Origin: Candidatus Iainarchaeum sp.
Lineage (GTDB): Archaea > Iainarchaeota > Iainarchaeia > Iainarchaeales > JAGVWC01
Direction: 5' to 3'
Assembly (NCBI GenBank): GCA_018304465.1
Contig: JAGVWC010000012.1
Location: 32,001 to 96,000, forward strand
Length of the DNA: 64,000 nt
Positions 1 to 38,853 of the stretch are shown here, one piece after another. A model generated the notes under the pieces. It made no database searches. It was not told the origin of the DNA and saw nothing but the letters and a program-made list of their open reading frames with translations. Within the stretch, counting starts at the first letter, position 1. Each line of letters starts with the position of its first letter. Made by a program: the position numbers and the translations under genes.

Positions 1-2712
1 CAATTCAAATTGCAGGCAGAAACCTGCGGCACCCAATGCCAAGTGTTAAAGGACAGCATTACTGGACCCAATGGACTGGATATGTTCAAAAAAACGGTTG
101 GGGACGCAACCAAAGAACTTGGCGACTACAAAAAAGAGTTATCCGATCTCTCGGACGTGTCGAATAATCAAGCGCTTTCCGAAATGGCGAGCGCCAAAGT
201 CACTGCGTTTACGGAGCATATGACCGAACCAAGCGACGTACAATATTGTACTCCTTGTTATGCCAAAGCAGACGAAGCGCTTTCCACATTTAATACTGCG
301 TATAAGGAAAAAATCCAGACCGTGAATCAGAAAGTGGACACGATTGAAAAACAATTGTCGGACCAATATGGCGAAAACGGAGCCGCGTATAAAGAGGCGC
401 AACAAGGGTTAAGTGACGCTCAAAAAAGCTGTGGACTGGGACAACAAGCACTAACCGACCAATCAAAAGCCACGCCGGTGGTATCCGATGACGCGGGAAT
501 GCGCCGGTTCGATTCGGGCGCCTTAAGCAGCATGATGTCGCAAGTCGCCATGCTGGGTTTGATGTCGGGTGCAATGGGAAACGGCTTCGCGTCCGATCCC
601 ACCGAAGATGCTCCGCAAGAACACGTGCAACAACAACAGCAAGTGTTTGCGATTAACCTGCCAAGCGATGCGCGATCGACGACAATGAACAACGAAGGAA
701 TCGGCGTGTCCATGGATGCCGAGAACGTCAAGGTCATGGGAAAAACGGATTTGCGCGACCAGCGTGTGCCCGTGATTTTCGAAAACGCGGGTCTCGAAGA
801 AGACAAGCCCACGTACGCGGTGATGACTATCGACGCGGTGGAACACGTGTTTGACGCGGTCACCAAGATTCCGTTCGGGGATTCGCGTTTCCTGCAAACC
901 GATTCGTGGGGACTAGGCCAGTTTTTCGGAAAACAACAGAATTACAACCAGAAATTCCATTTAAGATTCGTTTCAAAAGACACCTTGGTGGAATTGCCGC
1001 CGGTCATCGGAGACCAGTTCGCGTGCACGCAAGGCGCAATGGTGGGACAAACCGGACCGGATGCGTTGCCGAGAATCAAGTTGAAGTGGAACTGGACCGA
1101 TATTACGATGGATTCGTGCGACGCGAAAAACCCGGAGTTCATTTACTGTGACGCCACCCAATTCTCCATCATGATGACCAAACGCTTGCAGGCCGTCAAC
1201 GACTTTTTGGCGGCAAACCCGGGTATTCCATGTCCCACGAACTGGCTGGAAGAACAAGTGCAAGCCGAGCTTGATCCGTTTAACGAATACTTGGTCGCGT
1301 TGGATTTTAGAGAATTCCAAACGAGCGATTACGTGACGGGCTGTTGGCTGCCCAAAACCACGGACATGTTCGACAACAAATCCGCGTTGGAGTTTTACGT
1401 GGATGACTACAAGGAAAACATCCGTTGGACCGACCAGGTGCCGAATTCGCAGGCCTTGCACGAACTCTTGTATTTCGACGCGTATTTGATCCAGGACGGA
1501 TATACGTCCGACTTTAGACAAGACTTCGCGCATTATTTTTCGAATGTGTCGTTTGCGGATACGCCTTCGTTTTTCAACCAGGATCCGACCGGTCACAATT
1601 GGAGCAAGTATTTTTCGTTGGAAGGAATCACGTTCACGCAAAAATTCACGGAAAACGACCAGCTTCCAACCAGCGGCTTGTACCGCGTGGAAACCGTCGC
1701 GGATTTCAAGAACGATGACTGGGCGTTTTTTGACGGACAAACCTTAAACGCGTCCATCAATGTCGGTTTGCTTGCGTTACAACAGAGTTCGCTTAACAGC
1801 GTGTTTTATTATCTGCCGTTTGACGGCGAAGTTGGAACCGAAGGACAAAGTTTGGATCGCCAGGGATACGGAACCGGATACGAAATCGCGAATCATCAAG
1901 CGGTGCAGATTTCAAGACAAAGCGGAATCACGACGTTGGCCAACGCGGGATCGAATCCCGTGCAAGTCGTGGAAGTATCCACGGGTGGATCGTTTGATTC
2001 CTTAAACGCGTTTGCGTCGCAACGCGGATTCATTTTGGATATTGAAAACAAGGACTTGACCAAGAAAGTCTTGCGGTTTACGCCAAGTCTTGCAACCCCG
2101 ATTTTGCTGAAAGTGACGCAAGGCGCGACACCCGAACCATTCGGCGCGTTTTATACGATCCGAAACGCGGATATTCCGCAGAACCTGGGTCAAAGCGCGG
2201 CGTATTGGAGCGGTGCCGGCGCGTGTTTGGACTTTTCAGGTAACCTGGTCGCGGACGCGTGGGATTTCCGCCCCGACCGCAAAGCCCAGTCATCGGACCG
2301 GATTCCGAACTGGACGATTTCGTACGGCATTGATTGGTCCGCGGCGGAAACCGCCGGAGACGTGTTCTTGAAAACCGTCATGTATTCGCCGTTAAACGGT
2401 CGTTTTTCGATTAATGCCGCGTCCGACAACGTGTTGATCGCAACGCCGGACCAGCCGTTTGGAAAAGCCCAGGATCTTGCGGGAGTATCCACCATGGCGT
2501 TTAATCGCCAGGGAACCACGGCCCAAGACCGGATTACGGCGTTGGATGATTTGTTTGAATTGGTTTTCGAGCAAAAAGTGTGCGTGACCAATACGGGGAT
2601 TCGATCCAGTTTCTGGTGGAACCCCAAAACGGTTTTCAACCAGGCGGGCGGATCCGGAAGCAGTATTTCGGATATCGAAGCCACGTTGCAGTCCGGAAAA
2701 ACCTGCCGATAA
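1..2712 (+). CDS. Large Cys-rich putative surface protein, 5'-truncated by window edge; paralog of 3519..10808
   Basis: Frame is open from base 1. N-part is coiled-coil-like with CxxxC/CxxC. C-terminal ~680 aa aligns by eye with the C-terminus of 3519..10808 (TGPDALPRIKLKWNW, YCDATQFSIM, FYYLPFDGEVG, VCVTNTGIRSSFWWNP, terminal TCR). Confidence 0.85.
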   Translation, partial: QFKLQAETCGTQCQVLKDSITGPNGLDMFKKTVGDATKELGDYKKELSDLSDVSNNQALSEMASAKVTAFTEHMTEPSDVQYCTPCYAKADEALSTFNTAYKEKIQTVNQKVDTIEKQLSDQYGENGAAYKEAQQGLSDAQKSCGLGQQALTDQSKATPVVSDDAGMRRFDSGALSSMMSQVAMLGLMSGAMGNGFASDPTEDAPQEHVQQQQQVFAINLPSDARSTTMNNEGIGVSMDAENVKVMGKTDLRDQRVPVIFENAGLEEDKPTYAVMTIDAVEHVFDAVTKIPFGDSRFLQTDSWGLGQFFGKQQNYNQKFHLRFVSKDTLVELPPVIGDQFACTQGAMVGQTGPDALPRIKLKWNWTDITMDSCDAKNPEFIYCDATQFSIMMTKRLQAVNDFLAANPGIPCPTNWLEEQVQAELDPFNEYLVALDFREFQTSDYVTGCWLPKTTDMFDNKSALEFYVDDYKENIRWTDQVPNSQALHELLYFDAYLIQDGYTSDFRQDFAHYFSNVSFADTPSFFNQDPTGHNWSKYFSLEGITFTQKFTENDQLPTSGLYRVETVADFKNDDWAFFDGQTLNASINVGLLALQQSSLNSVFYYLPFDGEVGTEGQSLDRQGYGTGYEIANHQAVQISRQSGITTLANAGSNPVQVVEVSTGGSFDSLNAFASQRGFILDIENKDLTKKVLRFTPSLATPILLKVTQGATPEPFGAFYTIRNADIPQNLGQSAAYWSGAGACLDFSGNLVADAWDFRPDRKAQSSDRIPNWTISYGIDWSAAETAGDVFLKTVMYSPLNGRFSINAASDNVLIATPDQPFGKAQDLAGVSTMAFNRQGTTAQDRITALDDLFELVFEQKVCVTNTGIRSSFWWNPKTVFNQAGGSGSSISDIEATLQSGKTCR
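1051..1188 (+). repeat. Near-identical repeat, copy A1 (partner 9165..9302)
   Basis: 6 mismatches in 138 nt by manual alignment. Confidence 0.9.
2536..2625 (+). repeat. Near-identical repeat, copy B1 (partner 10632..10721)
   Basis: 3 mismatches in 90 nt by manual alignment. Confidence 0.9.
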
Positions 2713-2745
2713 TATATATTCCAAACCATTGCAGAGAGTTCGAAT

Positions 2746-3435
2746 ATGAAAAGACGATCACGGACACCAACGCCCCCCATCCAAAACCGATCCCGGCAAA
2801 AAGTAGGGCGAAGAACGGTGTTACGAACGGTGGTTTCGGCGGCGATCGTAATGCCGTTAGGTTGCGGTTTAAAGATGCCGCGGACCGAAAGAATTTCCCA
2901 GGTAAAGGAGTATGGCTGGCGGCATCGCACCGGAAATCTTCGGCGGTTAATTGTTTCCCAAAAAGTGTACCCAAAAGTGCCGGTTGAATATTATTTGGCT
3001 GAAATTGCGCGACTGAGTGCAAAAGCAAGCCGGCAAAAGCTGTCCCCGCAAAGCAACGTTTCTCCCGAACTTGAATTAATTACCCCTCTTTTTTCGGCCG
3101 AAGCATTAAAGTGGATGGTGAAAAGAAAACACGTTTCCCAGATTGTTGCCGATGAAATTAAAAAATACCAGAAAGGGGTTCCCAAGCAACGGATTCCAGT
3201 GAATCTATATTTGACCGCTCGCTCGGAATGGACGCGGTATGTGCATGAAAACCTAAAAACCAGGTCTTTTTTTACGGAGCTTCAATGGACTCCAAAAAAG
3301 CAGTTGGATTTTTTGCTGGTGGCAATGAAAGATTGGAATTCGTATCAGCGCGTGATACAGCAAGGACATATTCGAGATGCGGCATCCGCCAAGTATTTAT
3401 CGGAATTAAAGGCTTATGCCGAGACATTTCAATGA
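2746..3435 (+). CDS. Hypothetical basic protein (Arg/Lys-rich N-terminus)
   Basis: 229-aa ATG ORF filling the gap between the two giant genes. AT-rich TATA-like stretch at ~2711-2720. Visibly more AT-rich than its flanks. Confidence 0.65.
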   Translation: MKRRSRTPTPPIQNRSRQKVGRRTVLRTVVSAAIVMPLGCGLKMPRTERISQVKEYGWRHRTGNLRRLIVSQKVYPKVPVEYYLAEIARLSAKASRQKLSPQSNVSPELELITPLFSAEALKWMVKRKHVSQIVADEIKKYQKGVPKQRIPVNLYLTARSEWTRYVHENLKTRSFFTELQWTPKKQLDFLLVAMKDWNSYQRVIQQGHIRDAASAKYLSELKAYAETFQ

Positions 3436-3476
3436 CAAAAAGGTTTTCCTAGGCCAAAACGCTTTCTTTTGTAACC

Positions 3477-3484
3477 TTAATATA
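3477..3484 (+). promoter_or_regulatory. Putative TATA box for the giant surface protein gene
   Basis: TTAATATA ~35 nt upstream of the GTG start at 3519. Confidence 0.4.
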
Positions 3485-3518
3485 GGAGAATTCAGTATTC
3501 TATACGAAGGTTTTTTGG

Positions 3519-6500
3519 GTGTCAACCGAATTTAACGAAGCAGTGAATCAGTTCAAGGAAAAATGGGTTGCGCCGCATCGCACCGTGATTTTGAGCGCTC
3601 TCGTGGCCGGGTTTATTCTGGCGTCCTTGTTTGTTTTTTTTCTGATTCCAAACACATCCACGGTGACGATCCGGTTTGAAGACCAAAACCATGTCGCTGT
3701 GAAAAACGTTTTGGTGGTCGTCCGTCAGCCGTTTTCGAAAACGTTGGAGTCAAACGCTTCCGGAACCATTGAAGTGATCGCGTCGCCAAACGACACGATT
3801 TTTTTTCGCGCGGAAAAACCCGGGTTTTCGGTCATTGAAGCCAACATCACGCCCGAAAATCGGAAACCGGTGCACGTGTTTGAATTGGAATCCGCGTCCA
3901 AAACCAGTATTCAAACCATCGTGTTTTCGGGGCTGGATAATCAAAAAATTGTCGGAAAACAACTCGAAGTCCGGTTGAGTTGCGCAAATCTAAATGCGTC
4001 GATGGCACCGGCTGAAAAAACGGTTTCTTCGGAGGATCCGTTGCCGGTCACGTTGCCCAAGGATTGCGGCGGTTTGGTTGTTTCGGTTGTTTCTCCCGTG
4101 GAGTATGCGGGTTATTCATATTCGGTGAGCGCGGAATCGGGATTGATCCGGCTGAAAACAAAAAAGGCGGAAGCGGCAAGACCCGGCGGGTCTTTGACGG
4201 TTCGGGTCACGGCCGAAAAAGGAAGCGTTTTGGCGTCGGATTTGGAAGCGGTGTTGTTCTTGGATTCGAAACGGTTGTCGGAACAGACGGTTCAAAACGG
4301 TTCGGTCGTGTTTGAAAACCTGGAACCCGGAAAATACGCGGTTCGGTTGCATGACCGCAAAGGCGTGTGGGCGGACGCGGTTTCGGAGATCGCGTCGTTG
4401 TCTTCGGGAAAAAAAGGAGCGGTGTCGGTTTCGCTTCGTCAAGCCGTTGGAAAAATTTCAATGCAAACCTCGGATGCTTCGTCTTCTTTCCCGGTCGCGG
4501 GCGCGTGGGTGTCGATCGTGAATCCTTCAACGAACGCGTTGCTTGGCATCGGACAAACCGATCACGCGGGAAAAATCGTTTTTTCTTTTTCGCAAGCGGT
4601 TCCAAGCGGATTGGTCGCGGATATTTTCGCTCAAGGGTATTCGTTTCTTTCTCGGCGGCCCGTGACGGAACAAAACGAGTATCATTTGATTCCGGTTCAA
4701 AAAAAATCGGTTCAAATCGTTCGGGTGGTGGATTCTTCCGGGCAGTTGTTGGAAAACGCGCGGGTGTTTGCCGCGAACCCGGATTCGTTTGAAGCGTTTT
4801 CTTCGGTGTCGTATCAGGCAACGGATCATACGGGAACCGCGCGGTTTGAGGGGTTGTCAGGGCCCGTCGGGTTTGTGGGTTCCAAAGGATTGTTAAGCGG
4901 AAAATCAGGCGTGGTGGAGATCGGAAAAGGAACCGAGGTGCGCATCGTGCTGGTTTCGTCTGCGGCCACGATGCAGATTCGGGTGACGGATGAATCCGCT
5001 AAAGGAATTGCCGGTGCCCAGGTGTCGGTCAAAAACCGGTTAGGCGGAATTAGCGAGCTTAAAACCGGTTCGAATGGATCGGTGGGATTAAACGCCAATG
5101 AAGGGGACGAAGTCCAGTTATCGGTTTCAAAAGAAGGGTTTTCGAGGGTTGAAACGGATTGGTTTTGGGTGCAACACCAGTCCGAACGGATCGTGGTGTT
5201 ATCCAAGCCGTCTTCTCGGGTTTTGATCGAATGGGAAGGTGTGTTTGATCCGAACGGAAAACCCGTGACCAGTTTGTCGCCAAAAAGCAGGTATTTGGCC
5301 CGGATAGCGGTCAGCGTTCCGGATGATTCGGTGGAGACCGGCGTGATGATGGCGGTCGGAAACAAAACCGACGTCACGGAAGAAAACGCGTTCATTTCGT
5401 TTGTGGATTCCACGGGAATGGATATTTCCATGGGAAAAAAGCTGGACAGCACCTTAAGTGAAACGGAATTGGTTTCGGCTCAAAACTTGGATTTTTCAAA
5501 AGCCAAATGGGTTTTGTTGCGGCAGTTTAATCCCAAGCCGGGCAAACGGTTGGTGGGCGTTTGGTTTGAAACAACGGCGGGTTTTTCGGAGCCGCTTGAA
5601 ATCCAGTTCAGGGCGTGGAACCGCTCTGCGGGCGGGATTCAACTGGATCCGGCGGATTCGCAAGCGCAAGCAAAGCAAAAGCCGCTTCTTTTTTCGAACA
5701 TGCGCGCAATCACGGTGGCTGCAAGCGGTTTGGGTTCGGATTGTCTGGAAACGATTTGTGTTTCAAACCTTCAGCTGGAAACCGAATCCGAAGTGGATTC
5801 GGAACCGCCGTTTGACTTAGCGTCTTCTGCACATGGGTCTTTGCATTTGTCCGTTAAAAATACGTCCAGTGAAAACCTGAATGAATTGTCGTTTTCGGTG
5901 GCAAAAACCCAGGATGACGCGGCGACCCCGCTTTTTACCGTGCAGGAAATTCGCGTGGCGGGACAGAAAAAAGACGCGCCGGTTTTGTTTGATTTGAAAG
6001 CGGGAGAAGAAAAAGAAATCGAGGTCGTGTTGGAAGGAAAAACCACGGGACCGTTCGGATTAAAATTGTCTTTGTTGAACCGGGAAGAACCGTTGTGGGA
6101 AAGGGAAATCGCGTTTAATCCGAGTCAAAATCGTTCCTTGAAAATGAATCTGGATGCGTTGTCGGTGCCGGCGTTTTCCCCGTTTTTGCTTTCGATTGTG
6201 GTGCAAGACGCCGCGACATTGGAAGCGGTTCCGGACGCGCTCGTAACGATCGAGAGAACGTCTCCGGACGGGTCCGTTTCGGTGTCTTCGATGCGTGCGG
6301 ATAGTCTTGGAACGGCGGAATTTGATTTTACGGGAGTGCCAAACGGCACAAGTTTATACATAACTTCTTCCAGCGATGGCTTCGATCCCTCCTCCGCAAC
6401 GCTTATGGCCACTCCGTTGCTTTCGTTTTCCCCGCCGTTTATCGGGGTTTTGCTTTCGGGTGAAAACAGGGATGAAAAAGCGGTGATTTCGGTTCAAAAC

Positions 6501-9500
6501 CTTACGACCGAAAAAATCAAAGTGAACCGGATTGATTGGACGGGAAATTTCTTTTCGATCATCAACATGACCAAACTCTTGTCCGACGCCGATGCTTTTT
6601 CGGGAAGCGAAATCGGAAGCGGCGGTTTTGTCTCGGCCGAGTACGCGTTTAATTTGCATTCCGCGTTTTCTCCGACAGTAGACGAGTCTTTTTCGGGAAC
6701 CCACCTCGTCGAAGCGGCTTTGGGCGTCCAGAAATTCGTTTTCGTTTTGCCGGTGGAAGTAACCGTGAAGGCGAATCCGCAGACCGCGAATGCGGAGGAT
6801 TGTCTTAAGGTGAGCCAATCCGCGTGGAGCGGAAACACCGTGGAAAATCGCAGCGATTTCGCGTTTGTATTGGAAAACAATTGCGATGAGGATTTTTCGT
6901 CGCTTGAATCCCAGGTGGTTTGGGACAAAAATCCGATTGGAAACATCGAGTTGTCTTTTGACCAGCAGTCGCCGGTCGCGCTTGCGGACAAACAGTGGGC
7001 GTCTCTTGCGGAAACGGTTCCGAAAAAAGAATTCGCCGGAATACTGACGTTTACGCCAGGCGAAAACGAATTGGGGCAAGAAGCCAAGTTTACCGTGTAT
7101 CTCGCGGGGGTCAAACGATCCGATAAAGCCAGGGTGTTTTCCAAGACGATTTCGGCGAGCATCGCGGTGACGAATCTTGAAAATTGTTTGGTGTATTCGC
7201 CACATCCGGGCACGGGGTTGTCGATTGAGTACGGAAAAGAATCGGCGTTTTCCTTGGACGCGTCCGGCTGCGGAGAACTGGATCTTTCGGTTGAATTGTG
7301 CAAAGACGATCCGGGTTGTTCGGGCGGAGCGCCGGAAGGAAAAATTTCCGTGGAACCGCTTGAATTCGATTTGGGTGTTGAAAACCCGGTTCAGGAAATC
7401 AGGGTCAAAGGAATGGATTTGCCCGGAACGTACGACATCGGGGTTTTTGCGCAGACGCCATCAATCGATTTTGTTCAGATCAGTACCATGGCGATTCGGA
7501 TTAAAACGGATCCGAACGCGTTTTTGGATCTTGAAAAAACCGAGTTTTTCCTTAAAGGCGCCGGCAAAACGGATTCCGCGCAGGTGGAAAACAGGAACCT
7601 TTCAACCATCGTGAATGTGGAAGCGCGTGCCGAAGACTGGGCGCGATTGTCCGGAGAAAACCTTGCAGCGTTTTCGTTGGCTGGCACAGGCTTGTCACCG
7701 GCAGGCGCCTCGGCGTTGGTGGACGCGGCCACGGAGGCCAAAAACCAGGCCGCCGAACTTGCGCGTTCCACGGCGCAGCAAATGGAACAGGCCCAGCAAT
7801 TGTCCCAACAAGCCATGAACCAGCAGAACGATTCGGCCCAAAAGACTTCGGACGCCGAACAACAGGTGAGCACCGCGGCCGGGCTTGGTTCGCAAGGCGT
7901 GAACATGATTCAGATGCTTTCGACGCAATGCGCCGCGGTTGAAACCGCATGTGTTACTCCGATTTATCCCGCGTGCCAAGGCATTCCGCAGGCATGCGCC
8001 GCTGCACAGAGTATTTTCGGAGCGTTAAAAGGCGCGGAAGGCGCGGGAAATGCCGCGGCCGGCGCGGTGCAAGAAGCCCTTGAACAAACCGGTCCCCCTG
8101 GAGTCGTTTTGGCGAAAGGACAAAAAGATTCCTTGTTTAGGATCTTGTTGGCGGGCGCAAACGCGGTGGGTTCCGCCCAAACCGCGTTAACGGAAATTAA
8201 TAGTGCGGAGCAAACCGCGGCCGTGGAGACCTCAGCGGAATTATCCCAAGGCGCCGAAAGCGCAAGCGGTCTTGGAGCCAGTTCGTGTCAGAACAGCAAT
8301 CAAGCGCAGCAATCCGCGCAAGAAGCGGGTCAGAAAACCGGGCAAGCGGGAATGAACCTGGGATTGGCGGGCGCAAGCATCGGAATGTCGGTCACGCAAG
8401 CCGCGGCCATGGAAGCGTCCATGGGTTCGTGTACGTGTCCCGCGGCGGTTTCGATGAAAAACCAGTTTTATGCATTTAAAGGGGTGCAAACGAGTCTGGA
8501 TGGAACCAACGTGGCCGCGACTTCGGCCGCCAATGACCAGGCCAAACCCAGTCAGCAGCAAGCGCAAATGGGGTCGCAGGCCGCGTCCGCGGCGGCTTGT
8601 GCGGCAAGCGAACAGTTAAACAAGTTCGCGGATGCGTCCGAACAGTTGTCCGGGGATCTGAACGGGGAAAACGAGGAAGTCACCCAAAATATCGCGGCGA
8701 TTTTGGCCGGCGGGGTTTCTACCGGATACCTGGAAGGCATTTATCGTCCGGATGATGTGGTGCGAAATCAGTTAACGGGATTTGTGATTAATTTGAAAGC
8801 GGACGCCAAAACCGTTTCAACGGGAACCGAAAAAGTGTCAGGCGTGTTTGAAACCACGGATGCCTCGGTCGTGGGCGAATACAAAACCCAGTCCGCCGGC
8901 GTCGTTTTCTCGAACAAGTCGCTTGAAGAAGAAACGATTTTTGCAACCGTCGTGCTGGATACGAATCTGCACGAATATGCCGATCCTACGGTTGTTCCGG
9001 CGGGAGCAACGGGCTGGGGGCCTTTCCAATTGGAGTCGTTAAGTGAAGTGTCGTCGCACCAGCAAAAATTCCATGTCAAGTTCACGGGAAAAGAAGAGCC
9101 CCAAGTGATCGAACAGCAAGGACAACACGCGGTTGCATGTCAAAGTGGAGCCTTGTTGGGCCGAACCGGTCCGGACGCGTTGCCGAGAATCAAGTTGAAG
9201 TGGAACTGGACCGATATCACGTTGGATTCATGCGACGCGAAAAACCCGGATTTCATTTACTGTGACGCCACCCAATTCTCCATCATGATGACCAAACGCT
9301 TGTACGCGTTACGGGAGTTTTTGTCCCAAAACACCCATCTGAGTTGTCCGACGAACACGTACCAGGTGAACCTGGACGCGGAAATGAGCGGTTTTAACCG
9401 GCAATTGAACGCGGGATTCGCGTCCGCCAATTATGTTTCGGGTTGCTGGTTGCCGCGTTCCACGCGCTTGTTTGACAAACGCTCCGCGCTGGAATATTTC

Positions 9501-10808
9501 GTGGAAGCGACTCCGGATATTTCCTGGACCGACGATGTTCCGAATGTGTCGGCGTTGCATGATTTGCTTTTTTTCGACGCGTATTTGATCCAGGACGGTT
9601 ACTCGCCGGATTTTGGGGAAGATTTCACTTTTTTCTTTTCCAACGTGGCGTTTGCGGACACGCCCAATTATTTTTTCAACGATCCGTCCAAGCAAAACAT
9701 GTCCGAGTTTTTTGACAAACAGAAAATTTCGTTTTCCCAAAAATTTTCCGGCAGCGATCAGCTTCCGACCAGCGGTCTTTTTTCCGTTGAAACCAACGCG
9801 GATTTTTCGGAGGAATGGTCTTTTTTTGGAGCGAACCAGGTGCCGTCCGCAAGCTTCAATATCGAATTTTTGTATGAGGAATCGGGTCAACTCGACAGCC
9901 CGTTTTATTATCTGCCGTTTGACGGCGAAGTCGGGGTGCGGGGCGAGGAGTTTGAGCGAAATGGTTACGGCGTCGGATACGATGTGTTGGGAGACAACGA
10001 GTTCCGGATTTCGCGCGCAAGCGAAGTGCACACGCGGCAAAATTCTGGAACCGCGTTCCAGCAGTTTTCGGTTTTGAAAAAATCTTCGTTTGGAGAGCTT
10101 AATTTGATTCCGTCGCGGCGCGGGTATATTTTGGACGTGTACCAGAATTCGAACACGAAAAAAACAGGCGTTTTTTCGCCGTCGATTGCCACGCCGGTTC
10201 TTTTGAAAGTGCATCAAGACCAATCGCTCAAGCCGTTTTCCGCCTTGTATTCGCTTCGCATTGGGGACAACGCCATGGATGTCGGGGAACAGTCGGCGTT
10301 CTGGAGCGGCGCGGGGGCTTGCCTTGATTTTGACGGAAAAGACGTGGCCGACAACTGGCGTTTTTCGGCGGATCGGCGGGGACAGGCATCCGATCACGTG
10401 ACCGGAGCGGAAAAGTTTTACGGGATTTCGTGGCCCAAAGCCGATGAAGAAGCGACGGTGTATCTCAAAACGGTTTTTTTCCTTCCGATTGGAACGGGTT
10501 TCGATTTGCGATCGGAGACACTCAACGTGCGGTTTTTGACGGCGGACGAGCTTGAAGCGTCTTCCGTTAAACTCGGTGGGATTTCGACAATGGCGTTTAA
10601 CCGCCGCGGATCAACGGCGACCGATCACGTCACGGCGTTGGATGATTTGTTCGATTTGGTTTTCGAGCAAAAAGTATGCGTGACCAATACGGGGATTCGA
10701 TCCAGTTTCTGGTGGAACCCCGACGCGGTGTTCGAACAGCGGGGCTTAAGCGGAAAAAGCATCGATGAAACCGAAAGTGGTTTGGTTTCCGGCACTACCT
10801 GTCGGTAA
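3519..10808 (+). CDS. Giant (2429 aa) membrane-anchored surface protein: N-terminal TM, tandem carboxypeptidase-regulatory-like/Ig-like beta domains, Ala/Gln-rich helical insert, conserved C-terminal scaffold
   Basis: Hydrophobic VILSALVAGFILASLFVFFLI near the N-terminus. Repeated 'V.D..G..(I/V).(G/N)A.V...TD..G...F' prealbumin-like motifs. A/Q/G/S-rich segment at ~7640-8745. C-terminus paralogous to 1..2712. Confidence 0.9.
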   Translation: MSTEFNEAVNQFKEKWVAPHRTVILSALVAGFILASLFVFFLIPNTSTVTIRFEDQNHVAVKNVLVVVRQPFSKTLESNASGTIEVIASPNDTIFFRAEKPGFSVIEANITPENRKPVHVFELESASKTSIQTIVFSGLDNQKIVGKQLEVRLSCANLNASMAPAEKTVSSEDPLPVTLPKDCGGLVVSVVSPVEYAGYSYSVSAESGLIRLKTKKAEAARPGGSLTVRVTAEKGSVLASDLEAVLFLDSKRLSEQTVQNGSVVFENLEPGKYAVRLHDRKGVWADAVSEIASLSSGKKGAVSVSLRQAVGKISMQTSDASSSFPVAGAWVSIVNPSTNALLGIGQTDHAGKIVFSFSQAVPSGLVADIFAQGYSFLSRRPVTEQNEYHLIPVQKKSVQIVRVVDSSGQLLENARVFAANPDSFEAFSSVSYQATDHTGTARFEGLSGPVGFVGSKGLLSGKSGVVEIGKGTEVRIVLVSSAATMQIRVTDESAKGIAGAQVSVKNRLGGISELKTGSNGSVGLNANEGDEVQLSVSKEGFSRVETDWFWVQHQSERIVVLSKPSSRVLIEWEGVFDPNGKPVTSLSPKSRYLARIAVSVPDDSVETGVMMAVGNKTDVTEENAFISFVDSTGMDISMGKKLDSTLSETELVSAQNLDFSKAKWVLLRQFNPKPGKRLVGVWFETTAGFSEPLEIQFRAWNRSAGGIQLDPADSQAQAKQKPLLFSNMRAITVAASGLGSDCLETICVSNLQLETESEVDSEPPFDLASSAHGSLHLSVKNTSSENLNELSFSVAKTQDDAATPLFTVQEIRVAGQKKDAPVLFDLKAGEEKEIEVVLEGKTTGPFGLKLSLLNREEPLWEREIAFNPSQNRSLKMNLDALSVPAFSPFLLSIVVQDAATLEAVPDALVTIERTSPDGSVSVSSMRADSLGTAEFDFTGVPNGTSLYITSSSDGFDPSSATLMATPLLSFSPPFIGVLLSGENRDEKAVISVQNLTTEKIKVNRIDWTGNFFSIINMTKLLSDADAFSGSEIGSGGFVSAEYAFNLHSAFSPTVDESFSGTHLVEAALGVQKFVFVLPVEVTVKANPQTANAEDCLKVSQSAWSGNTVENRSDFAFVLENNCDEDFSSLESQVVWDKNPIGNIELSFDQQSPVALADKQWASLAETVPKKEFAGILTFTPGENELGQEAKFTVYLAGVKRSDKARVFSKTISASIAVTNLENCLVYSPHPGTGLSIEYGKESAFSLDASGCGELDLSVELCKDDPGCSGGAPEGKISVEPLEFDLGVENPVQEIRVKGMDLPGTYDIGVFAQTPSIDFVQISTMAIRIKTDPNAFLDLEKTEFFLKGAGKTDSAQVENRNLSTIVNVEARAEDWARLSGENLAAFSLAGTGLSPAGASALVDAATEAKNQAAELARSTAQQMEQAQQLSQQAMNQQNDSAQKTSDAEQQVSTAAGLGSQGVNMIQMLSTQCAAVETACVTPIYPACQGIPQACAAAQSIFGALKGAEGAGNAAAGAVQEALEQTGPPGVVLAKGQKDSLFRILLAGANAVGSAQTALTEINSAEQTAAVETSAELSQGAESASGLGASSCQNSNQAQQSAQEAGQKTGQAGMNLGLAGASIGMSVTQAAAMEASMGSCTCPAAVSMKNQFYAFKGVQTSLDGTNVAATSAANDQAKPSQQQAQMGSQAASAAACAASEQLNKFADASEQLSGDLNGENEEVTQNIAAILAGGVSTGYLEGIYRPDDVVRNQLTGFVINLKADAKTVSTGTEKVSGVFETTDASVVGEYKTQSAGVVFSNKSLEEETIFATVVLDTNLHEYADPTVVPAGATGWGPFQLESLSEVSSHQQKFHVKFTGKEEPQVIEQQGQHAVACQSGALLGRTGPDALPRIKLKWNWTDITLDSCDAKNPDFIYCDATQFSIMMTKRLYALREFLSQNTHLSCPTNTYQVNLDAEMSGFNRQLNAGFASANYVSGCWLPRSTRLFDKRSALEYFVEATPDISWTDDVPNVSALHDLLFFDAYLIQDGYSPDFGEDFTFFFSNVAFADTPNYFFNDPSKQNMSEFFDKQKISFSQKFSGSDQLPTSGLFSVETNADFSEEWSFFGANQVPSASFNIEFLYEESGQLDSPFYYLPFDGEVGVRGEEFERNGYGVGYDVLGDNEFRISRASEVHTRQNSGTAFQQFSVLKKSSFGELNLIPSRRGYILDVYQNSNTKKTGVFSPSIATPVLLKVHQDQSLKPFSALYSLRIGDNAMDVGEQSAFWSGAGACLDFDGKDVADNWRFSADRRGQASDHVTGAEKFYGISWPKADEEATVYLKTVFFLPIGTGFDLRSETLNVRFLTADELEASSVKLGGISTMAFNRRGSTATDHVTALDDLFDLVFEQKVCVTNTGIRSSFWWNPDAVFEQRGLSGKSIDETESGLVSGTTCR
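9165..9302 (+). repeat. Near-identical repeat, copy A2 (partner 1051..1188)
   Basis: 6 mismatches in 138 nt by manual alignment. Confidence 0.9.
10632..10721 (+). repeat. Near-identical repeat, copy B2 (partner 2536..2625)
   Basis: 3 mismatches in 90 nt by manual alignment. Confidence 0.9.
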
Positions 10809-10858
10809 GATTCGGGGAACTTTTTTAAACTGTTAGATGGATGGTATAATTGAATTTT

Positions 10859-11434
10859 ATGAATGTTTTGGCTGTTTTTCTCGTAATTTTCGGTTTGGTA
10901 TTGTCCGGATGCGTTTCGATTCCGCAACCCGAAAATAAAGCGATCGAAATCGCGAACAAATCCACGGAAGGCCGCGCTTTGTTCGTGATGAGAGATGCGT
11001 TTTCGAAAACGCCGCAATGTACGGTTGAAGAATACCTGCAAGTGGTTGGAATCGTGAATCCGATGCTTGCGGGATTGTCTCCGCGCGTGCAGTTGATCAC
11101 GGATCCCGCGCAAGCGCAGGTATTGGTGGCCACGGCCAAGGAGTGCAATCCGATGGTTTTGATCAGACCAAGCGACCCGGCAAACAACAAAGCATTGGTT
11201 TCGTATTCGATTTCGACGCCTTCTGCGTGTCCGGTCAGCGACCTGGCGGGAAAAACGCGTTCCGTGCTTGAAATCGAATCGGATTTTTCCACCCAGTCAC
11301 CCAGAATCGTTTCGGGGGAATTGAAGGAATCGGATGAAAAAACCCTTCAAGGGGTTTTGCCGGCCGTGGGTTTGATGGGAAATTGTGCGGCGCCCGTTTT
11401 GATGCAATCTCAATCGGTTCCAATGTTTTCATAA
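10859..11434 (+). CDS. Putative lipoprotein, Cys-containing
   Basis: MNVLAVFLVIFGLVLSGC: hydrophobic signal ending in an LSGC lipobox. Four further Cys. Confidence 0.75.
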   Translation: MNVLAVFLVIFGLVLSGCVSIPQPENKAIEIANKSTEGRALFVMRDAFSKTPQCTVEEYLQVVGIVNPMLAGLSPRVQLITDPAQAQVLVATAKECNPMVLIRPSDPANNKALVSYSISTPSACPVSDLAGKTRSVLEIESDFSTQSPRIVSGELKESDEKTLQGVLPAVGLMGNCAAPVLMQSQSVPMFS

Positions 11435-11448
11435 AAAAGGTTTTGAAT

Positions 11449-11928
11449 ATGAATGGAATTCAAAAATCAATGCTGTTATGGGGCGTCATTTGTCTTATTG
11501 GTTTTGGCGTGTTTCAGTTTTGGCACGCAAGTCTCGCCGAAGTCAATACGACGTTAGCGGTGCTTTCCATTATCGGATTGTTCGCGTTGTATTACTGGGT
11601 ACCGCAAGCCAACCGGAAAAAACTGTTGGTCGCATGGTCCATTCTCGTGATTTTGGGTTTGGTGATCAGTATTTTTTGGATGAACGGCTGGCTTTCCACT
11701 GCGGGAATAACCGCTCCGTTCATTTCGATGTGGCTGGTATTGTTTACCCTGGGTTTTGCTTACACGGGGCATTACACCAAGGAAAACGCGTGGTTTGCCG
11801 CGGCGTTGATTCAAATCCTTCTGTTGATCGGGGTCTGGCTGCATGTGGCGTCAGTGTGGGATTTTTCTTACTTATTGCTTGGAATCATCACGGGGATCCC
11901 CTTGATTCTGATGAGTTTCAAATATTAG
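11449..11928 (+). CDS. Hypothetical integral membrane protein (~6 TM)
   Basis: Almost entirely hydrophobic segments. ATG at 11449 follows the upstream stop. Confidence 0.75.
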   Translation: MNGIQKSMLLWGVICLIGFGVFQFWHASLAEVNTTLAVLSIIGLFALYYWVPQANRKKLLVAWSILVILGLVISIFWMNGWLSTAGITAPFISMWLVLFTLGFAYTGHYTKENAWFAAALIQILLLIGVWLHVASVWDFSYLLLGIITGIPLILMSFKY

Positions 11929-11944
11929 GACCTGGTGATGGAGT

Positions 11945-13183
11945 ATGCCTGAAAAATCGTTTGACGCAATCGTGGTGGGCGCGGGTCCCGGCGGGTCTAC
12001 GGCCGCGATGTATCTTGGAAACGCGGGGTACAACGTATTATTGCTTGACAAAGCGGTTTTTCCGCGCGACAAAACCTGCGGGGACGCGATTGGCGCCAAA
12101 AGCCAGGCGGTTATCCGGGAACTTGGTTTTTTGAACGAAATCGAATCGATTCCGCACGCAAAAGTGTACGGCGTGTTGTTTTCGGCGCCGAACCAGAAGT
12201 CGGTGACGATCCGGTTTCCGGGAACCGATCCGGAAAAAGGAAAAGGCGGGTATTGTATTCGCCGCGAAGTATTTGACAATTTCGTGTTTTCGCACGCAAA
12301 GAAAAACAAAAACGTGACCGCGATCGAATCGTTTCAGGTAACGGATATCGCGTCGGAAAACGGTTTTGTGGTCGGCGTCAAGGGGATGGATGTCAAAACA
12401 AAGCAAGCCGCCGAGTTCCGCGCAAAAATCGTGGTGGGTGCGGATGGCGCGAGTTCGATCGTGGCGACCAAACTGGGGTTGAACCCCGTGATTCCGGAGC
12501 ATGATTGTTTGGCGTTACGCGCGTACTATCAGGATATCGGCGGATTGACCCCCAACATCGAGATTCATTTCGTGGATTCTTTGCTCCCGGGTTACTTTTG
12601 GATTTTTCCATTGGAAAACGGACTGGCGAACGTCGGCGTTGGAATGATCACCAAGGATATCAAAGAACACAACATTAAATTGCAGGAAGAAATGTTCAAG
12701 GTCATTGAAAACCATCCGATGTTCAAGGAACGCTTCAAGAACGCAAAACGCGTAACTGACGTGAAAGGATGGCGGTTGCCGTTTGGTTCGCATCACCGAA
12801 AAGCGCATGGAAACGGCTGGGTTTTGATCGGAGACGCCGCGTCTTTAATCGATCCGTTTTCAGGCGAAGGGATTTCCAATTCGATGTATTCGGGAAAATT
12901 GGCCGCGGAACAAATCATCGAGATCATGAACGCAAAACAGCCGCTGTCCGAAGAAGCGCTGGCGCCTTACGAGGACAAACTCTGGAAGACGCTTGGAAAC
13001 GAATTGTCCACCAGTTACAAACTGCAGCGCATCGGTCGCATCAAATTTCTCTTGAATTTGGTCGTGAGCCGCGCGTCAAAAAGCAAAAAAATGCAGGAAA
13101 TGATTTCGGGAATGCTTGGAAACGAGGAAGTCAAGAAAGAATTAACGGGGCCGTTGTTTTATCTCAAGCTTTTGTTCGCGTGA
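11945..13183 (+). CDS. Geranylgeranyl reductase family FAD-dependent oxidoreductase
   Basis: GAGPGGS Rossmann motif, FPRDKTCGDA, GADG, PGYFWIFP, IGDAASLIDPFSGEGI. GGTGA RBS upstream. Confidence 0.92.
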   Translation: MPEKSFDAIVVGAGPGGSTAAMYLGNAGYNVLLLDKAVFPRDKTCGDAIGAKSQAVIRELGFLNEIESIPHAKVYGVLFSAPNQKSVTIRFPGTDPEKGKGGYCIRREVFDNFVFSHAKKNKNVTAIESFQVTDIASENGFVVGVKGMDVKTKQAAEFRAKIVVGADGASSIVATKLGLNPVIPEHDCLALRAYYQDIGGLTPNIEIHFVDSLLPGYFWIFPLENGLANVGVGMITKDIKEHNIKLQEEMFKVIENHPMFKERFKNAKRVTDVKGWRLPFGSHHRKAHGNGWVLIGDAASLIDPFSGEGISNSMYSGKLAAEQIIEIMNAKQPLSEEALAPYEDKLWKTLGNELSTSYKLQRIGRIKFLLNLVVSRASKSKKMQEMISGMLGNEEVKKELTGPLFYLKLLFA

Positions 13184-35907: not shown

Positions 35908-38853
35908 ATGAAAGAATCGCTTCGTCGAATCGATCGCGTTCGTTTTGAGCTTCCAGCCGCGGGTTCGATGAATGTTCCGGTTCGGTTGTTTGCCAACGAC
36001 CGGATTTTGCCGACGATTGATGACCAAACCTTGCAGCAGGCCAAAAATGTCGCTTCGATGCCGGGAATCGTCGGAAACATGCTGCTGATGGCCGACTGTC
36101 ATCTGGGATACGGAATGCCGGTCGGTGGCGTTGCGGGTTTTGACGTCAACGAAGGCGTGATTTCACCAAGCGCGGTGGGATACGATATCAACTGCCTTCC
36201 CGGAGAAACAAGAATCCTTACACGCTTTGGATATTCGTTACCAATAGCGGCGTTCAAAGAAAAGATTGAAACAGAACAACTAATTTGTTTTTGGGAAAAT
36301 GAAAAAACCAAGACTCCGATCATCCGTTTTTTCGAACGTCCAGAAAAAGAAGTATTATACCAGATTACAACAGAATCGGGGAAACAAATCCGTGCAACAA
36401 AAGATCATCCAATACTGACGAAACAGGGGATGAAGGAATGTGAAAAGCTTGGATTAGAACTCGTTGCAACGTTCTCGTTTGAAGGCATTCCGTTTGAGCC
36501 ACCATCGTCCCGAATAATTATTTCAGAAGAAGACTTCGCTAAGTCGTATCCATATCATGGGAAGGCACTCGAGTACGCATTGCGCTTTCTGAAAAAACAA
36601 AACCTCTTACCTTTAACCGAAGACAACCCTAAATTTCCATTGTTAGTAAAAATAGCGGGTTTTATTCAAGGCGACGGCTCTTTGCATTTTTTAAAAAAAC
36701 ATGGTGCAACGGTTGGGTTTTACGGAGAAAAAGAGGACTTAAAAGAAATTAAGAAAGATTTGAAAGAGATTGGGTTTTCATCGGTATTATATTCGAGGAC
36801 TCGGGTACATAAGATAAAAACAATGTATGATACCTTTTCGTTTGTCAGAGAAGAAACCAGCCTGAATTGTCCTTCAAGGTCTTTTGCGGGATTATTGGCT
36901 GCACTTGGGTGCACGACGGGAAATAAGGCTAAAAAAATCTATGGCTTGCCAAGTTGGCTGCAAACGTGCCCGAAGTGGATGAAAAGGTTATATTTAGCGG
37001 CTCTTTTCGGGGCAGAACTGTCTTCTCCAGACACTGTTACAGATGCGCCGTACAATTTTTACGGTCCTGTTTTATCCATGAACAAAAGGATTGCCGCAAT
37101 GGAAGGAGGAAGAATATTTTTGGAAGAGGTCAAACAGTTACTCAAGGAATTTGGAATTGAAAGTACTTTGATAAACGAGCGAGAAGAGCTAATTAATGAA
37201 AAGGGGGAAATTTCAATCCGATTAAGACTTCAGATTTCCTCTGTTCCAGAGAATTTGGAAAAGTTGTGGGAAAAAATAGGTTTTGAATATAACAAACAGA
37301 AACAATTTTTGGCAGCAGTCGCAACGTCGTATTTGCAGATAAAGCAAAAAATGCTTGCCGAAAGAACACAAAGTATTGCAACAGCTCGAATGTTGAAAAA
37401 TGAGGGATTAACTCTACAGGAAATCACTCAGCGAATTGGTAACCCCTACATTAACGAACGATTTGTTGCGCGAAGCATTTGGGAAAATCGAAAAACAAAC
37501 GTCCGAACCGCTACAAAGTTTGAGACTTTCGATGGTTTTCTCCAAGTTAGAACAGAGGGCTTGGATCAATCGGGGCAGGTGTGGGAAAAAATAATTAAAA
37601 TTGAACAACTTCCGTTTGAAGGAAATGTGTATGATTTTACCGTTGAAAACGAAGCACATAACTTCGTAGCAAATAGCATCACAGTATCAAACTGCGGCAT
37701 GCGTCTGATGACGACGAATTTGTCGATCAAGGACGTGCAACCGAAATTGAAAACCCTGGTTTCCGAGTTGTTCAAATCGGTTCCCGTGGGCGTTGGACGC
37801 AAAGGATTGTTGACGCTTTCCGAGAATGATTTTGACGAAGTGATGGTGCACGGGGCGAAATGGCTGGTGAAAAACGGTTTTGGCTGGAAAAAAGATTTGG
37901 ATGCCATTGAAGAAAACGGCGCGATCAAAGGCGCGGATCCCGCCAAGGTTTCCCAAAAAGCGCGGCAACGCGGAACCGACCAGTTGGGAACGCTGGGAAG
38001 TGGCAATCATTATTTGGAAGTACAGGTGTCGCGTGCAAGGGATGTGGACGACCCCAAGATCGCGAAAAAATTCGGAATCTCTTCTCCGGACCAGGTCATG
38101 GTCATGATTCATTGCGGTTCGCGGGGATTTGGTCATCAGGTGTGTTCGGATTATGCCACGGAATTCGTGTCAACGATGAAAAAATTCGATATTTCGGTGG
38201 CCGACCGCGATTTGGCGTGTGTTCCGTTTCAAAGCGAACCCGGCCAGGATTATTTTGCGGGAATGAATTGCGCGGCAAACAACGCGTTTGCGAATCGGCA
38301 GTTAATCATGCACCGCGTGCGCGAAGTTTTTTCGAAAGTATTCGAGTCTTCCGCAGAGGATCTGGAAATGAATCTGGTGTATGACGTGTGCCATAATATC
38401 GCGAAAGTGGAGCCGTACAAATTCGACGGAAAAACGCGGAAAGTCGTGGTGCATCGCAAAGGCGCGACGCGTTGTTTTGGTCCGGGTCAACCGGGTCTTT
38501 CGGATCGTTTTCAAAAAACGGGTCAGCCCGTCATTGTCGGCGGTTCAATGGAAACGGGTTCGTACGTGTGCGTGGGAACCCAGCAGGCCATGGACGAATC
38601 GTTGGGTTCCACGATGCATGGTTCGGGGCGCACGATGTCGCGGCAAAAAGCCAAAGAATTGTATAGGGGAAACGAATTGTTGGCTTCGATGGAAAGCCGC
38701 GGAATCATCGTGAAAGCGGCGTCCATGCAGGGATTGGCCGAAGAAGCGGGGGCCGCGTACAAAAATATTTCCGATGTCGTGGATACCATGCACGAGGCCG
38801 GGATATCCAAAAAAGTCTGTCGGCTGGCGCCGATCGGAAACATCAAGGGTTGA
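35908..38853 (+). CDS. rtcB: RtcB tRNA-splicing ligase, intein-containing
   Basis: DCHLGYGMPVGG, VGYDIN|CG, LGTLGSGNHYLE, HCGSRGFGHQ, HRKGAT, HGSGR. Confidence 0.96.
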   Translation: MKESLRRIDRVRFELPAAGSMNVPVRLFANDRILPTIDDQTLQQAKNVASMPGIVGNMLLMADCHLGYGMPVGGVAGFDVNEGVISPSAVGYDINCLPGETRILTRFGYSLPIAAFKEKIETEQLICFWENEKTKTPIIRFFERPEKEVLYQITTESGKQIRATKDHPILTKQGMKECEKLGLELVATFSFEGIPFEPPSSRIIISEEDFAKSYPYHGKALEYALRFLKKQNLLPLTEDNPKFPLLVKIAGFIQGDGSLHFLKKHGATVGFYGEKEDLKEIKKDLKEIGFSSVLYSRTRVHKIKTMYDTFSFVREETSLNCPSRSFAGLLAALGCTTGNKAKKIYGLPSWLQTCPKWMKRLYLAALFGAELSSPDTVTDAPYNFYGPVLSMNKRIAAMEGGRIFLEEVKQLLKEFGIESTLINEREELINEKGEISIRLRLQISSVPENLEKLWEKIGFEYNKQKQFLAAVATSYLQIKQKMLAERTQSIATARMLKNEGLTLQEITQRIGNPYINERFVARSIWENRKTNVRTATKFETFDGFLQVRTEGLDQSGQVWEKIIKIEQLPFEGNVYDFTVENEAHNFVANSITVSNCGMRLMTTNLSIKDVQPKLKTLVSELFKSVPVGVGRKGLLTLSENDFDEVMVHGAKWLVKNGFGWKKDLDAIEENGAIKGADPAKVSQKARQRGTDQLGTLGSGNHYLEVQVSRARDVDDPKIAKKFGISSPDQVMVMIHCGSRGFGHQVCSDYATEFVSTMKKFDISVADRDLACVPFQSEPGQDYFAGMNCAANNAFANRQLIMHRVREVFSKVFESSAEDLEMNLVYDVCHNIAKVEPYKFDGKTRKVVVHRKGATRCFGPGQPGLSDRFQKTGQPVIVGGSMETGSYVCVGTQQAMDESLGSTMHGSGRTMSRQKAKELYRGNELLASMESRGIIVKAASMQGLAEEAGAAYKNISDVVDTMHEAGISKKVCRLAPIGNIKG
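36193..37692 (+). mobile_element. Intein (500 aa) with LAGLIDADG-type homing endonuclease in RtcB
   Basis: Starts CLPGETRI; block B ATKDHPIL; IAGFIQGDGS and LAALFGAE endonuclease motifs; ends VYDFTV..HNFVANSITVSN followed by Cys; AT-richer than the flanking gene. Confidence 0.95.

Follow-up and report, generated by a model that had tools for sequence, protein, structure and literature searches.

What are the two giant proteins encoded at the start of this stretch of archaeal DNA? The stretch (hereafter the window; C11:32001-96000, 64,000 nucleotides) belongs to the genome of a Candidatus Iainarchaeum sp., which amounts to 1,246,008 bp in 15 contigs and is 92% complete. The organism is a tiny DPANN archaeon from groundwater, of the order Iainarchaeales, in the phylum Iainarchaeota, formerly named Diapherotrites. 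To our knowledge, the order is uncultured and nothing has been learned about its cell surface. The first of the two genes, E, enters the window with its 3' part, and the second one, G, is complete. The reading that we favour, with a probability of about one half, is that E and G are core, order-wide, two-module glycoproteins of the cell envelope, which would have a structural or adhesive function beside a conventional surface layer (S-layer).

The features of the locus are collected in Table 1. On the whole contig, gene E encodes 2606 aa (C11:26892-34712). The C-terminal ends of E and G are identical at 343 of 727 aligned residues (47%, E-value 0 in BLASTP), and the alignment starts shortly ahead of F(A/V)INL and runs through the common end ...TCR*. 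We refer to this shared region as the C-terminal domain (CTD). The earlier note had described such a shared end in two giant surface proteins, the complete one anchored at its N-terminus, with a ~1300-aa beta-sandwich scaffold joined to a conserved domain without a name, and all of these points were borne out. The anchor is located at residues ~20-51 of G. For a survey of the middle block we gathered 80 full-length relatives (at least 2200 aa), and 79 of them have an N-terminal anchor. A C-terminal anchor was found in none of the 80, as there was no hydrophobic segment in the last 20% of their length.

Table 1. Features of the giant-gene locus; positions are those of the window, and genes A to D lie upstream of it on the same contig.
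Feature	Position	Strand	Remarks
Gene E, 3' part (903 codons)	1..2712	+	frame open at 5' end; fused scaffold-plus-head form
E middle block, tail	1..645	+	Cys-containing, does not align to G block
E Gly-rich, weakly hydrophobic segment	526..588	+	position of the second hairpin helix in relatives
E shared CTD, FAINL to TCR	646..2709	+	47% identity to G
ORF F, 229 aa, between E and G	2746..3435	+	Tat/lipobox-like N-terminus (RR...LGC)
TATA-box-like TTAATATA	3477..3484	+	35 nt before the GTG of G
Gene G, complete fused form, 2429 aa	3519..10808	+	GTG start
G N-terminal signal-anchor	3576..3671	+	residues ~20-51; only strong hydrophobic segment of G
G scaffold, ~1300 aa	3672..7568	+	beta-sandwich domains (CarboxypepD_reg, prealbumin-like, Big_1-like), conserved Cys pairs
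G middle block	7671..8765	+	residues ~1385-1749; Ala/Gln/Ser/Gly-rich, 8 Cys; unrelated to E block
G Gly-rich, weakly hydrophobic segment NIAAILAGGVSTGYLEG	8688..8738	+	Kyte-Doolittle (KD) hydropathy ~1.3
G CTD, 680 aa	8766..10805	+	model mean pLDDT 85.8, pTM 0.74
G CTD core, alpha/beta	9108..10055	+	holds most conserved motifs; model pLDDT 82.7, pTM 0.84
Gene A, 1135 aa			N-terminal tag, anchor, beta-sandwich scaffold
Gene B, 785 aa			signal peptide/lipobox, Cys-rich region, CTD
Gene C, 1156 aa			content as in A
Gene D, 1002 aa			content as in B; N-terminal hydrophobic segment

The CTD is 47-65% identical where the scaffolds are 17-45% identical. It has no Pfam match, no NCBIfam match and no PDB sequence match, and we found no description of the family in the main texts of the literature. 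We modelled it with AlphaFold2 from a 33-sequence alignment and refolded the core alone as residues 115-430. The model consists of three parts, an Ig-like sandwich (residues 1-108), an alpha/beta core (~120-400) that contains at least five long helices, and a beta-rich part (400-680). With the whole model we obtained 0 Foldseek matches at E<=1e-3 in PDB or BFVD, and the best E-value of the core alone was 0.63. As judged from the model, the core is a candidate for a new protein fold. Residues 472-614 show weak fold echoes of adhesin beta sandwiches. Latexin and Asp3 came up in a profile search against PDB sequences (E 0.17-0.76) and were rejected as chance. The most conserved motifs of the core are TGP..A.PR.K..W.W, YCDATQFSI, DGYS.DF..DF and FYY.PFDG.VG, and R.GYG and W.GAG.C.DF.G are further conserved motifs of the CTD. 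Asp, Arg, Tyr, Trp and Asn residues are invariant or near-invariant. One Ser and three Cys, which we take as disulfide-forming, are also conserved, and no His is.

Next, we determined how far the CTD extends. Among 1.84 billion representative proteins we observed 589 matches at E<=1e-3, 507 at <=1e-10 and 287 at <=1e-30. The domain was always C-terminal, mostly in proteins of 2200-2700 aa, and the public annotation of the family reads only 'carboxypeptidase regulatory-like domain-containing protein' or 'hypothetical protein'. A pattern scan with one genome per species gave 85 relatives in 74 loci, labelled Iainarchaeum (32), 'uncultured archaeon' (21), 'archaeon' (13), Micrarchaeota (2), Thaumarchaeota (3) and Chloroflexi metagenome-assembled genome (3). 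The bins labelled 'Thaumarchaeota archaeon' or 'Chloroflexi bacterium' that carry the family (L016, L022, L044, L062, L067 and L072) are probably mislabelled or mixed. In a sample of 215 genomes of the phylum, 196 from the order of the window and 19 from other orders, the CTD profile matched 191/196 genomes of the order and 0/19 genomes of the sister orders. The five misses listed are each at most 86% complete, and 55 of the 58 high-quality genomes in the sample were matched. By this profile, the family is confined to a single order of DPANN archaea. Most genomes of the order have 4-9 CTD matches. Among the matches listed, at least 20 genomes have two CTDs on one strand at a distance of 6-9 kb.

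The genome of the window itself has 8 CTD matches spread over five genes. Upstream of the window, where the earlier note had advised looking for more paralogs, we could read A, B, C and D from the same contig. Together with the genes in the window they form a 28-kb one-strand array, A-B-C-D-E-F-G, in which the stop of A and the start of B overlap by 4 nt. Fused genes (E, G) thus occur in one genome with split scaffold-plus-head pairs (A+B, C+D). More members are found on contig 13 (C13), where H encodes 1340 aa and I encodes 1210 aa with the CTD and without a signal peptide. At the H/I junction (C13:148620-148645, L010:3620-3645) there is a TTGA start/stop overlap inside a domain that is continuous in E. 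H and I are probably one gene of ~2550 aa split by a frameshift, which may be genuine or may stem from the assembly. Since the conserved site of the family in this genome is the H/I locus, the array that enters the window is an additional expansion. Contig 13 also carries the giants J (2228 aa, C13:123119-129805) and K (2604 aa, C13:136060-143874), which share the tag, anchor and scaffold. A divergent CTD forms the C-terminus of K (hhalign probability 96.8%, E 3e-10). The C-terminus of J was rejected as a member (probability 0.8% against the CTD profile), and its end is something different, with only a YCDA...KKL echo. The ten genes (A-E and G-K) total ~16,500 codons, which is ~4% of the genome.

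CarboxypepD_reg was above the Pfam cut-off in all scaffolds scanned (E 8.5e-17 in G). SpaA/prealbumin was above it in four, namely C, H, E and, only via MG4, A (29.7 bits vs a cut-off of 24.7), and other isolated MG3/MG4 matches were sub-threshold. Ig_DR_A0283-like, Big_1 and bMG3 matches were below the cut-off in the scaffolds scanned. In the first ~550 residues of G these sub-threshold matches were Ig_DR_A0283-like, SpaA prealbumin-like and Big_1. Conserved Cys pairs run along the scaffolds of A, C, E and G. The density of N-glycosylation sequons was 0.8-1.2 per 100 aa in nine of the ten members (0.51 in B), and the genome median is 0.46. Tandem DNA repeats were not detected in window positions 1-10900 (0 TRF rows), and the only DNA repeats found were those between E and G, with none internal to either gene. 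An identity with bacterial alpha-2-macroglobulins was rejected, as Pfam scans of the members found no thioester or A2M domain, and an IFT57 match (E 0.033) was rejected as coiled-coil composition.

Ahead of the anchor, A, C, E, H, J and K have a common N-terminal tag of ~45 residues, predicted to be cytoplasmic, and the N-terminus of G differs from it. The tag is present in 35 of the 74 related loci with 45-69% identity, and the scaffold there is ~23% identical. Tag plus scaffold were also found in all five sister-order genomes tested, in giant ORFs of 893-3223 aa that match residues ~2-166 of C. The conservation of this tag, common to the giants of sister orders, hints at a targeting or anchoring step. 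In one report, clustered giant anchored proteins that make up ~5% of a tiny genome are described for Ca. Forterrea multitransposorum of the same phylum, in a single sentence and without domain analysis (PMC5905446). The giant ORFs of the sister orders resemble our proteins in tag and scaffold, and differ from them in that the CTD was not found in any of the 19 genomes.

The part between scaffold and CTD behaves differently. The blocks of E and G are both rich in Ala, Gln, Ser and Gly, yet they do not align (18-24% identity, with gaps), and both finish in a Gly-rich, weakly hydrophobic segment. In the relatives, high-scoring segment pairs (HSPs) covered the G scaffold (residues 151-1300) in 89-97% and CTD residues 2001-2400 in 97-99% of cases, and residues 1401-1750 in just 8-20% of the 80. 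When G is compared with its ortholog P0004, the block is 50-67%, the CTD 53-65% and the scaffold 17-50% identical. Between E and P0005, the block is 21-37% and its flanks are 45-73% identical. The G block aligns end to end with four orthologs, with the Cys columns kept in 5/5 sequences, and contigs from four runs of three studies have zero differing letters in it. Judged from these alignments, the variation of the middle block is not simple hypervariability, as it is paralog-specific and, in the G type, conserved among orthologs. The earlier note had proposed an exchangeable cassette at this position. The claim stands insofar as paralogs have different blocks and no other part of the proteins aligns as poorly across the 80 relatives. 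It fails for the G block, which is conserved among orthologs, and for about half of the relatives, which have a short hydrophobic stretch instead.

The public contigs require some care at this point. In four public runs, the contigs break at window positions 1092-1204 and 8988-9273, the closest E/G stretch (210 nt, 83% identical), because the assemblers stumble on the two paralogs. Four differing letters at 9218-9251, within the region common to E and G, in one contig and 42-75 letters from its end, were taken as a mix-up of paralogs during assembly. A read-contig joint 3651->7145 was disregarded, as its shorter side of 24 letters is under the reliability hint. P0156, a protein of 1732 aa, is identical to the first part of G (window 3519-8714), which suggests another gene call or an assembly with a shortened G.

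A hydrophobic segment with KD>=1.7 at 55-80% of the length was present in 46 of the 80 relatives, and in 24 of them it reached KD>=2.2. Such a segment was seen in the scaffold of 3/80 and in the CTD of 0/80. In 15 of the 38 proteins with a locatable CTD-start motif, the strong segment ends 7-23 residues earlier, usually followed by ...DPC. Several relatives show what looks like two helices, joined by CPPC or GP. The Gly-rich segments of E and G are the positional counterparts of these strong pre-CTD helices, with the hydrophobicity lost. Since B has a signal peptide and D an N-terminal hydrophobic segment, we infer that the CTD is extracellular. With an extracellular CTD, a hairpin with two passes would be the simplest reading of the hydropathy profiles, and such relatives would be anchored twice.

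We also looked for a conventional S-layer protein. PF05124 (S_layer_C) was found in 152 of the 196 genomes of the order, in 113 above the Pfam cut-off, typically in an ORF of 800-1100 aa. The genome of the window has one such gene (C2:35862-38727, minus strand; L091:1862-4727), with PF05124 halves at both ends and a signal peptide. It is Thr/Asn-rich with many sequons, it is split into overlapping ORFs of 686 and 329 aa, and we regard its product, from these features, as a candidate conventional S-layer glycoprotein. PF07752 and PF05123 had no match in this genome, and by hmmscan none of the three families matched E, G, A, B, C, D, H or I.

How could such proteins be built into the cell? In the favoured reading, that of envelope glycoproteins, module A consists of the short conserved cytoplasmic tag, the N-terminal signal-anchor and a putatively extracellular series of beta-sandwich domains (~1300 aa), and module B of a variable connector followed by the conserved CTD of ~580-680 aa. 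The modules are fused via a soluble Cys-containing linker in E and G, fused via a hydrophobic, often hairpin-like stretch in many relatives, or placed in adjacent genes in A+B and C+D, where the B module has its own signal or anchor. The giants may form a constitutive pillar, arch or fibre of the envelope beside the conventional S-layer-type protein. The beta-sandwich scaffold would be the exposed, faster-evolving part, and the CTD may bind a partner conserved throughout the order (the cell's own envelope or a glycan) or assemble with itself. We favour this reading because the family is near-universal, vertically inherited and multi-copy in the order, which fits a housekeeping part of the envelope, because conservation is highest in the CTD and lowest in the scaffold, and because the CTD is membrane-proximal in many relatives. 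The split pairs resemble SlaA/SlaB of the Sulfolobales in that an anchored stalk is combined with a separate large outer protein, and the coexisting fused and split forms can be likened to this two-component system. In contrast to that system, to which no sequence relation was detected (no Pfam match), B and D each have a signal or anchor of their own, and SlaB has a C-terminal anchor and a coiled coil.

Several points weigh against an envelope part of this kind. The presence of multiple divergent paralogs in each genome is a feature more typically seen with adhesins than with a structural coat. The PF05124 candidate means that the giants are not needed as a lattice, so their structural role is a guess. 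The codon adaptation index (CAI) of the genes lies at the 50th-87th percentile, which does not point to very high expression. If the internal hydrophobic stretch were one membrane helix, as opposed to a hairpin, the CTD would end up in the cytoplasm. An enzymatic or lectin site could explain the invariant Asp, Arg, Tyr and Trp of the CTD equally well. Given their share of the genome and their presence in nearly every genome of the order, the giants are probably a main building block of the envelope in a whole DPANN order, and the fused, hairpin-linked and split forms are natural, ready-made constructs for structural work.

The number of diverged paralogs brings us to adhesins for other cells or particles, a mild form of the host contact considered in the earlier note, in which the Ig-like stalk would hold out the CTD as a ligand-binding head, with specificities that differ between the paralogs. 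The layout of the G type, a stalk plus a head without an internal hydrophobic hairpin, also fits. Bacterial giant fibrillar adhesins (Bap, RTX and SiiE-type) are defined by one anchor, an Ig-like stalk and a distinct terminal domain, and all of these are found in our giants. They differ from Bap and RTX proteins in having neither near-identical tandem repeats nor the secretion signal of those systems, and their terminal domain is conserved, not variable. Conservation peaks in the supposed head and is lowest in the stalk, the reverse of what fast-evolving adhesin heads show. In many relatives, the strong hydrophobic segment 7-23 residues before the CTD would moreover hold the domain at the cell's own membrane. 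We regard adhesins as rather unlikely. If the family did mediate cell contact, it would offer a first molecular handle on the lifestyle of the lineage. The giants could also be the S-layer lattice itself, a 'colossal' protein. A preprint describes PySLP of Pyrobaculum arsenaticum as a 292-kDa Ig-rich S-layer protein that has an Ig pillar and a non-canonical region rich in Cys, and whose cytoplasmic tail is conserved (bioRxiv 10.64898/2026.08.21.746120). Our giants are comparable in being a single chain of ~2400-2700 aa with one anchor, a short conserved cytoplasmic tail, a long Ig-like pillar and Cys in the non-canonical region. Their topology would be inverted, as PySLP, by that description, has an N-terminal signal peptide, a C-terminal anchor and a basic tail. 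The likeness is one of description, PySLP comes from the Thermoproteota, and the giants are multi-paralog and accompanied by a separate S_layer_C-type gene. Near-universal presence in the order and the unmatched PF07752 and PF05123 speak for a lattice. The lattice is made improbable by the wide occurrence of PF05124 proteins in the order, our genome included, by an only moderate CAI and by the number of diverged paralogs, five to seven as against the one or two genes that a lattice would call for.

An enzyme or a lectin on the surface, tethered by the scaffold and active for example in glycan or polymer processing, would explain why invariant or near-invariant Asp, Arg, Tyr, Trp and Asn are clustered in motifs and why the CTD is so conserved across the order. 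Given that no enzyme family or fold was matched, that no His is conserved and that no Ser or Cys stands out as a nucleophile, we see a small chance for it. SPEARE proteins of the Nanohaloarchaeota are giant surface proteins with serine protease and restriction endonuclease domains, and neither domain was found by Pfam in any member scanned. The earlier note had also considered a role in host contact, as a translocon or as a fusogen, and this part was not supported, as nothing ties the genes to a host. In a device for membrane insertion or fusion, the pre-CTD hairpin or the Gly-rich segment would serve as an internal fusion loop and insert into the membrane of a partner cell. The internal stretch in 46/80 relatives, its frequent two-helix form and the Gly-rich segments at the same position in G and E are compatible with this. 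Class II fusion proteins and archaeal fusexins have a beta-rich, Cys-containing ectodomain beside a hydrophobic element, as our proteins do, and they are further marked by a three-domain beta fold, with the fusion loop at the tip of domain II, and by a C-terminal stem and anchor. However, the CTD core is alpha/beta with long helices, and E and G end in ...TCR without such a stem or anchor. Foldseek matches of the 680-residue CTD model to class II fusion proteins (flavivirus E, bunyavirus Gc) had E 0.03-0.2 and TM ~0.04. We consider them noise, since the rmsd was ~30 A and none was among the 50 best rows of a second PDB comparison. The strong segments resemble ordinary transmembrane helices (KD 2.2-3.0), and in the G-type orthologs the hydrophobicity is wholly lost, so we consider the fusion device very unlikely. 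Hardly more probable is a broader version, in which the hairpin or its Gly-rich relic would be the insertion element of a lineage-specific apparatus that bridges or fuses with the membrane of a partner cell, or in which the giant would be a polyprotein cut at a signal-peptide-like internal helix. If either were true, it would mean a new class of archaeal machinery for cell-cell fusion or bridging.

The neighbourhood of the giant genes is partly conserved. Downstream of the giant gene, 27-32 of the 74 loci have small coiled-coil genes, then a weakly HerA/DUF87-like gene of ~500 aa, and PolB. The corresponding flank in the genome of the window, with two such coiled-coil genes, is L010:9238-12998, and the Walker A motif of its HerA/DUF87-like protein looks degenerate. 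This protein was considered as a partner for the cytoplasmic tag of the giants. Since PolB and MetAP are conserved alongside, this synteny may be housekeeping only. Within the window, ORF F between E and G has no family match and is absent from 74/74 related loci (tblastn). Because it is missing from all of them, it is probably not a member of the giant-protein system. Neither of the two ORFs that follow G (window 10850-11434 and 11478-12134) has a family match, tblastn found them in 0/74 loci, and we rejected all three ORFs as partners. From its sequence and position, the TATA-box-like TTAATATA is a candidate promoter of G's own.

The remainder of the window gave no matches in tRNA and Rfam searches, and an 886-aa ORF without a Pfam match lies among housekeeping genes at 40984-43644. 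Archaeal genes elsewhere in the window encode a split RpoB, RpoA'/A'', EF-2, EF-1alpha, ribosomal proteins and the tRNA ligase RtcB. The latter (35908-38853) is split by an intein with a remnant of a LAGLIDADG endonuclease.

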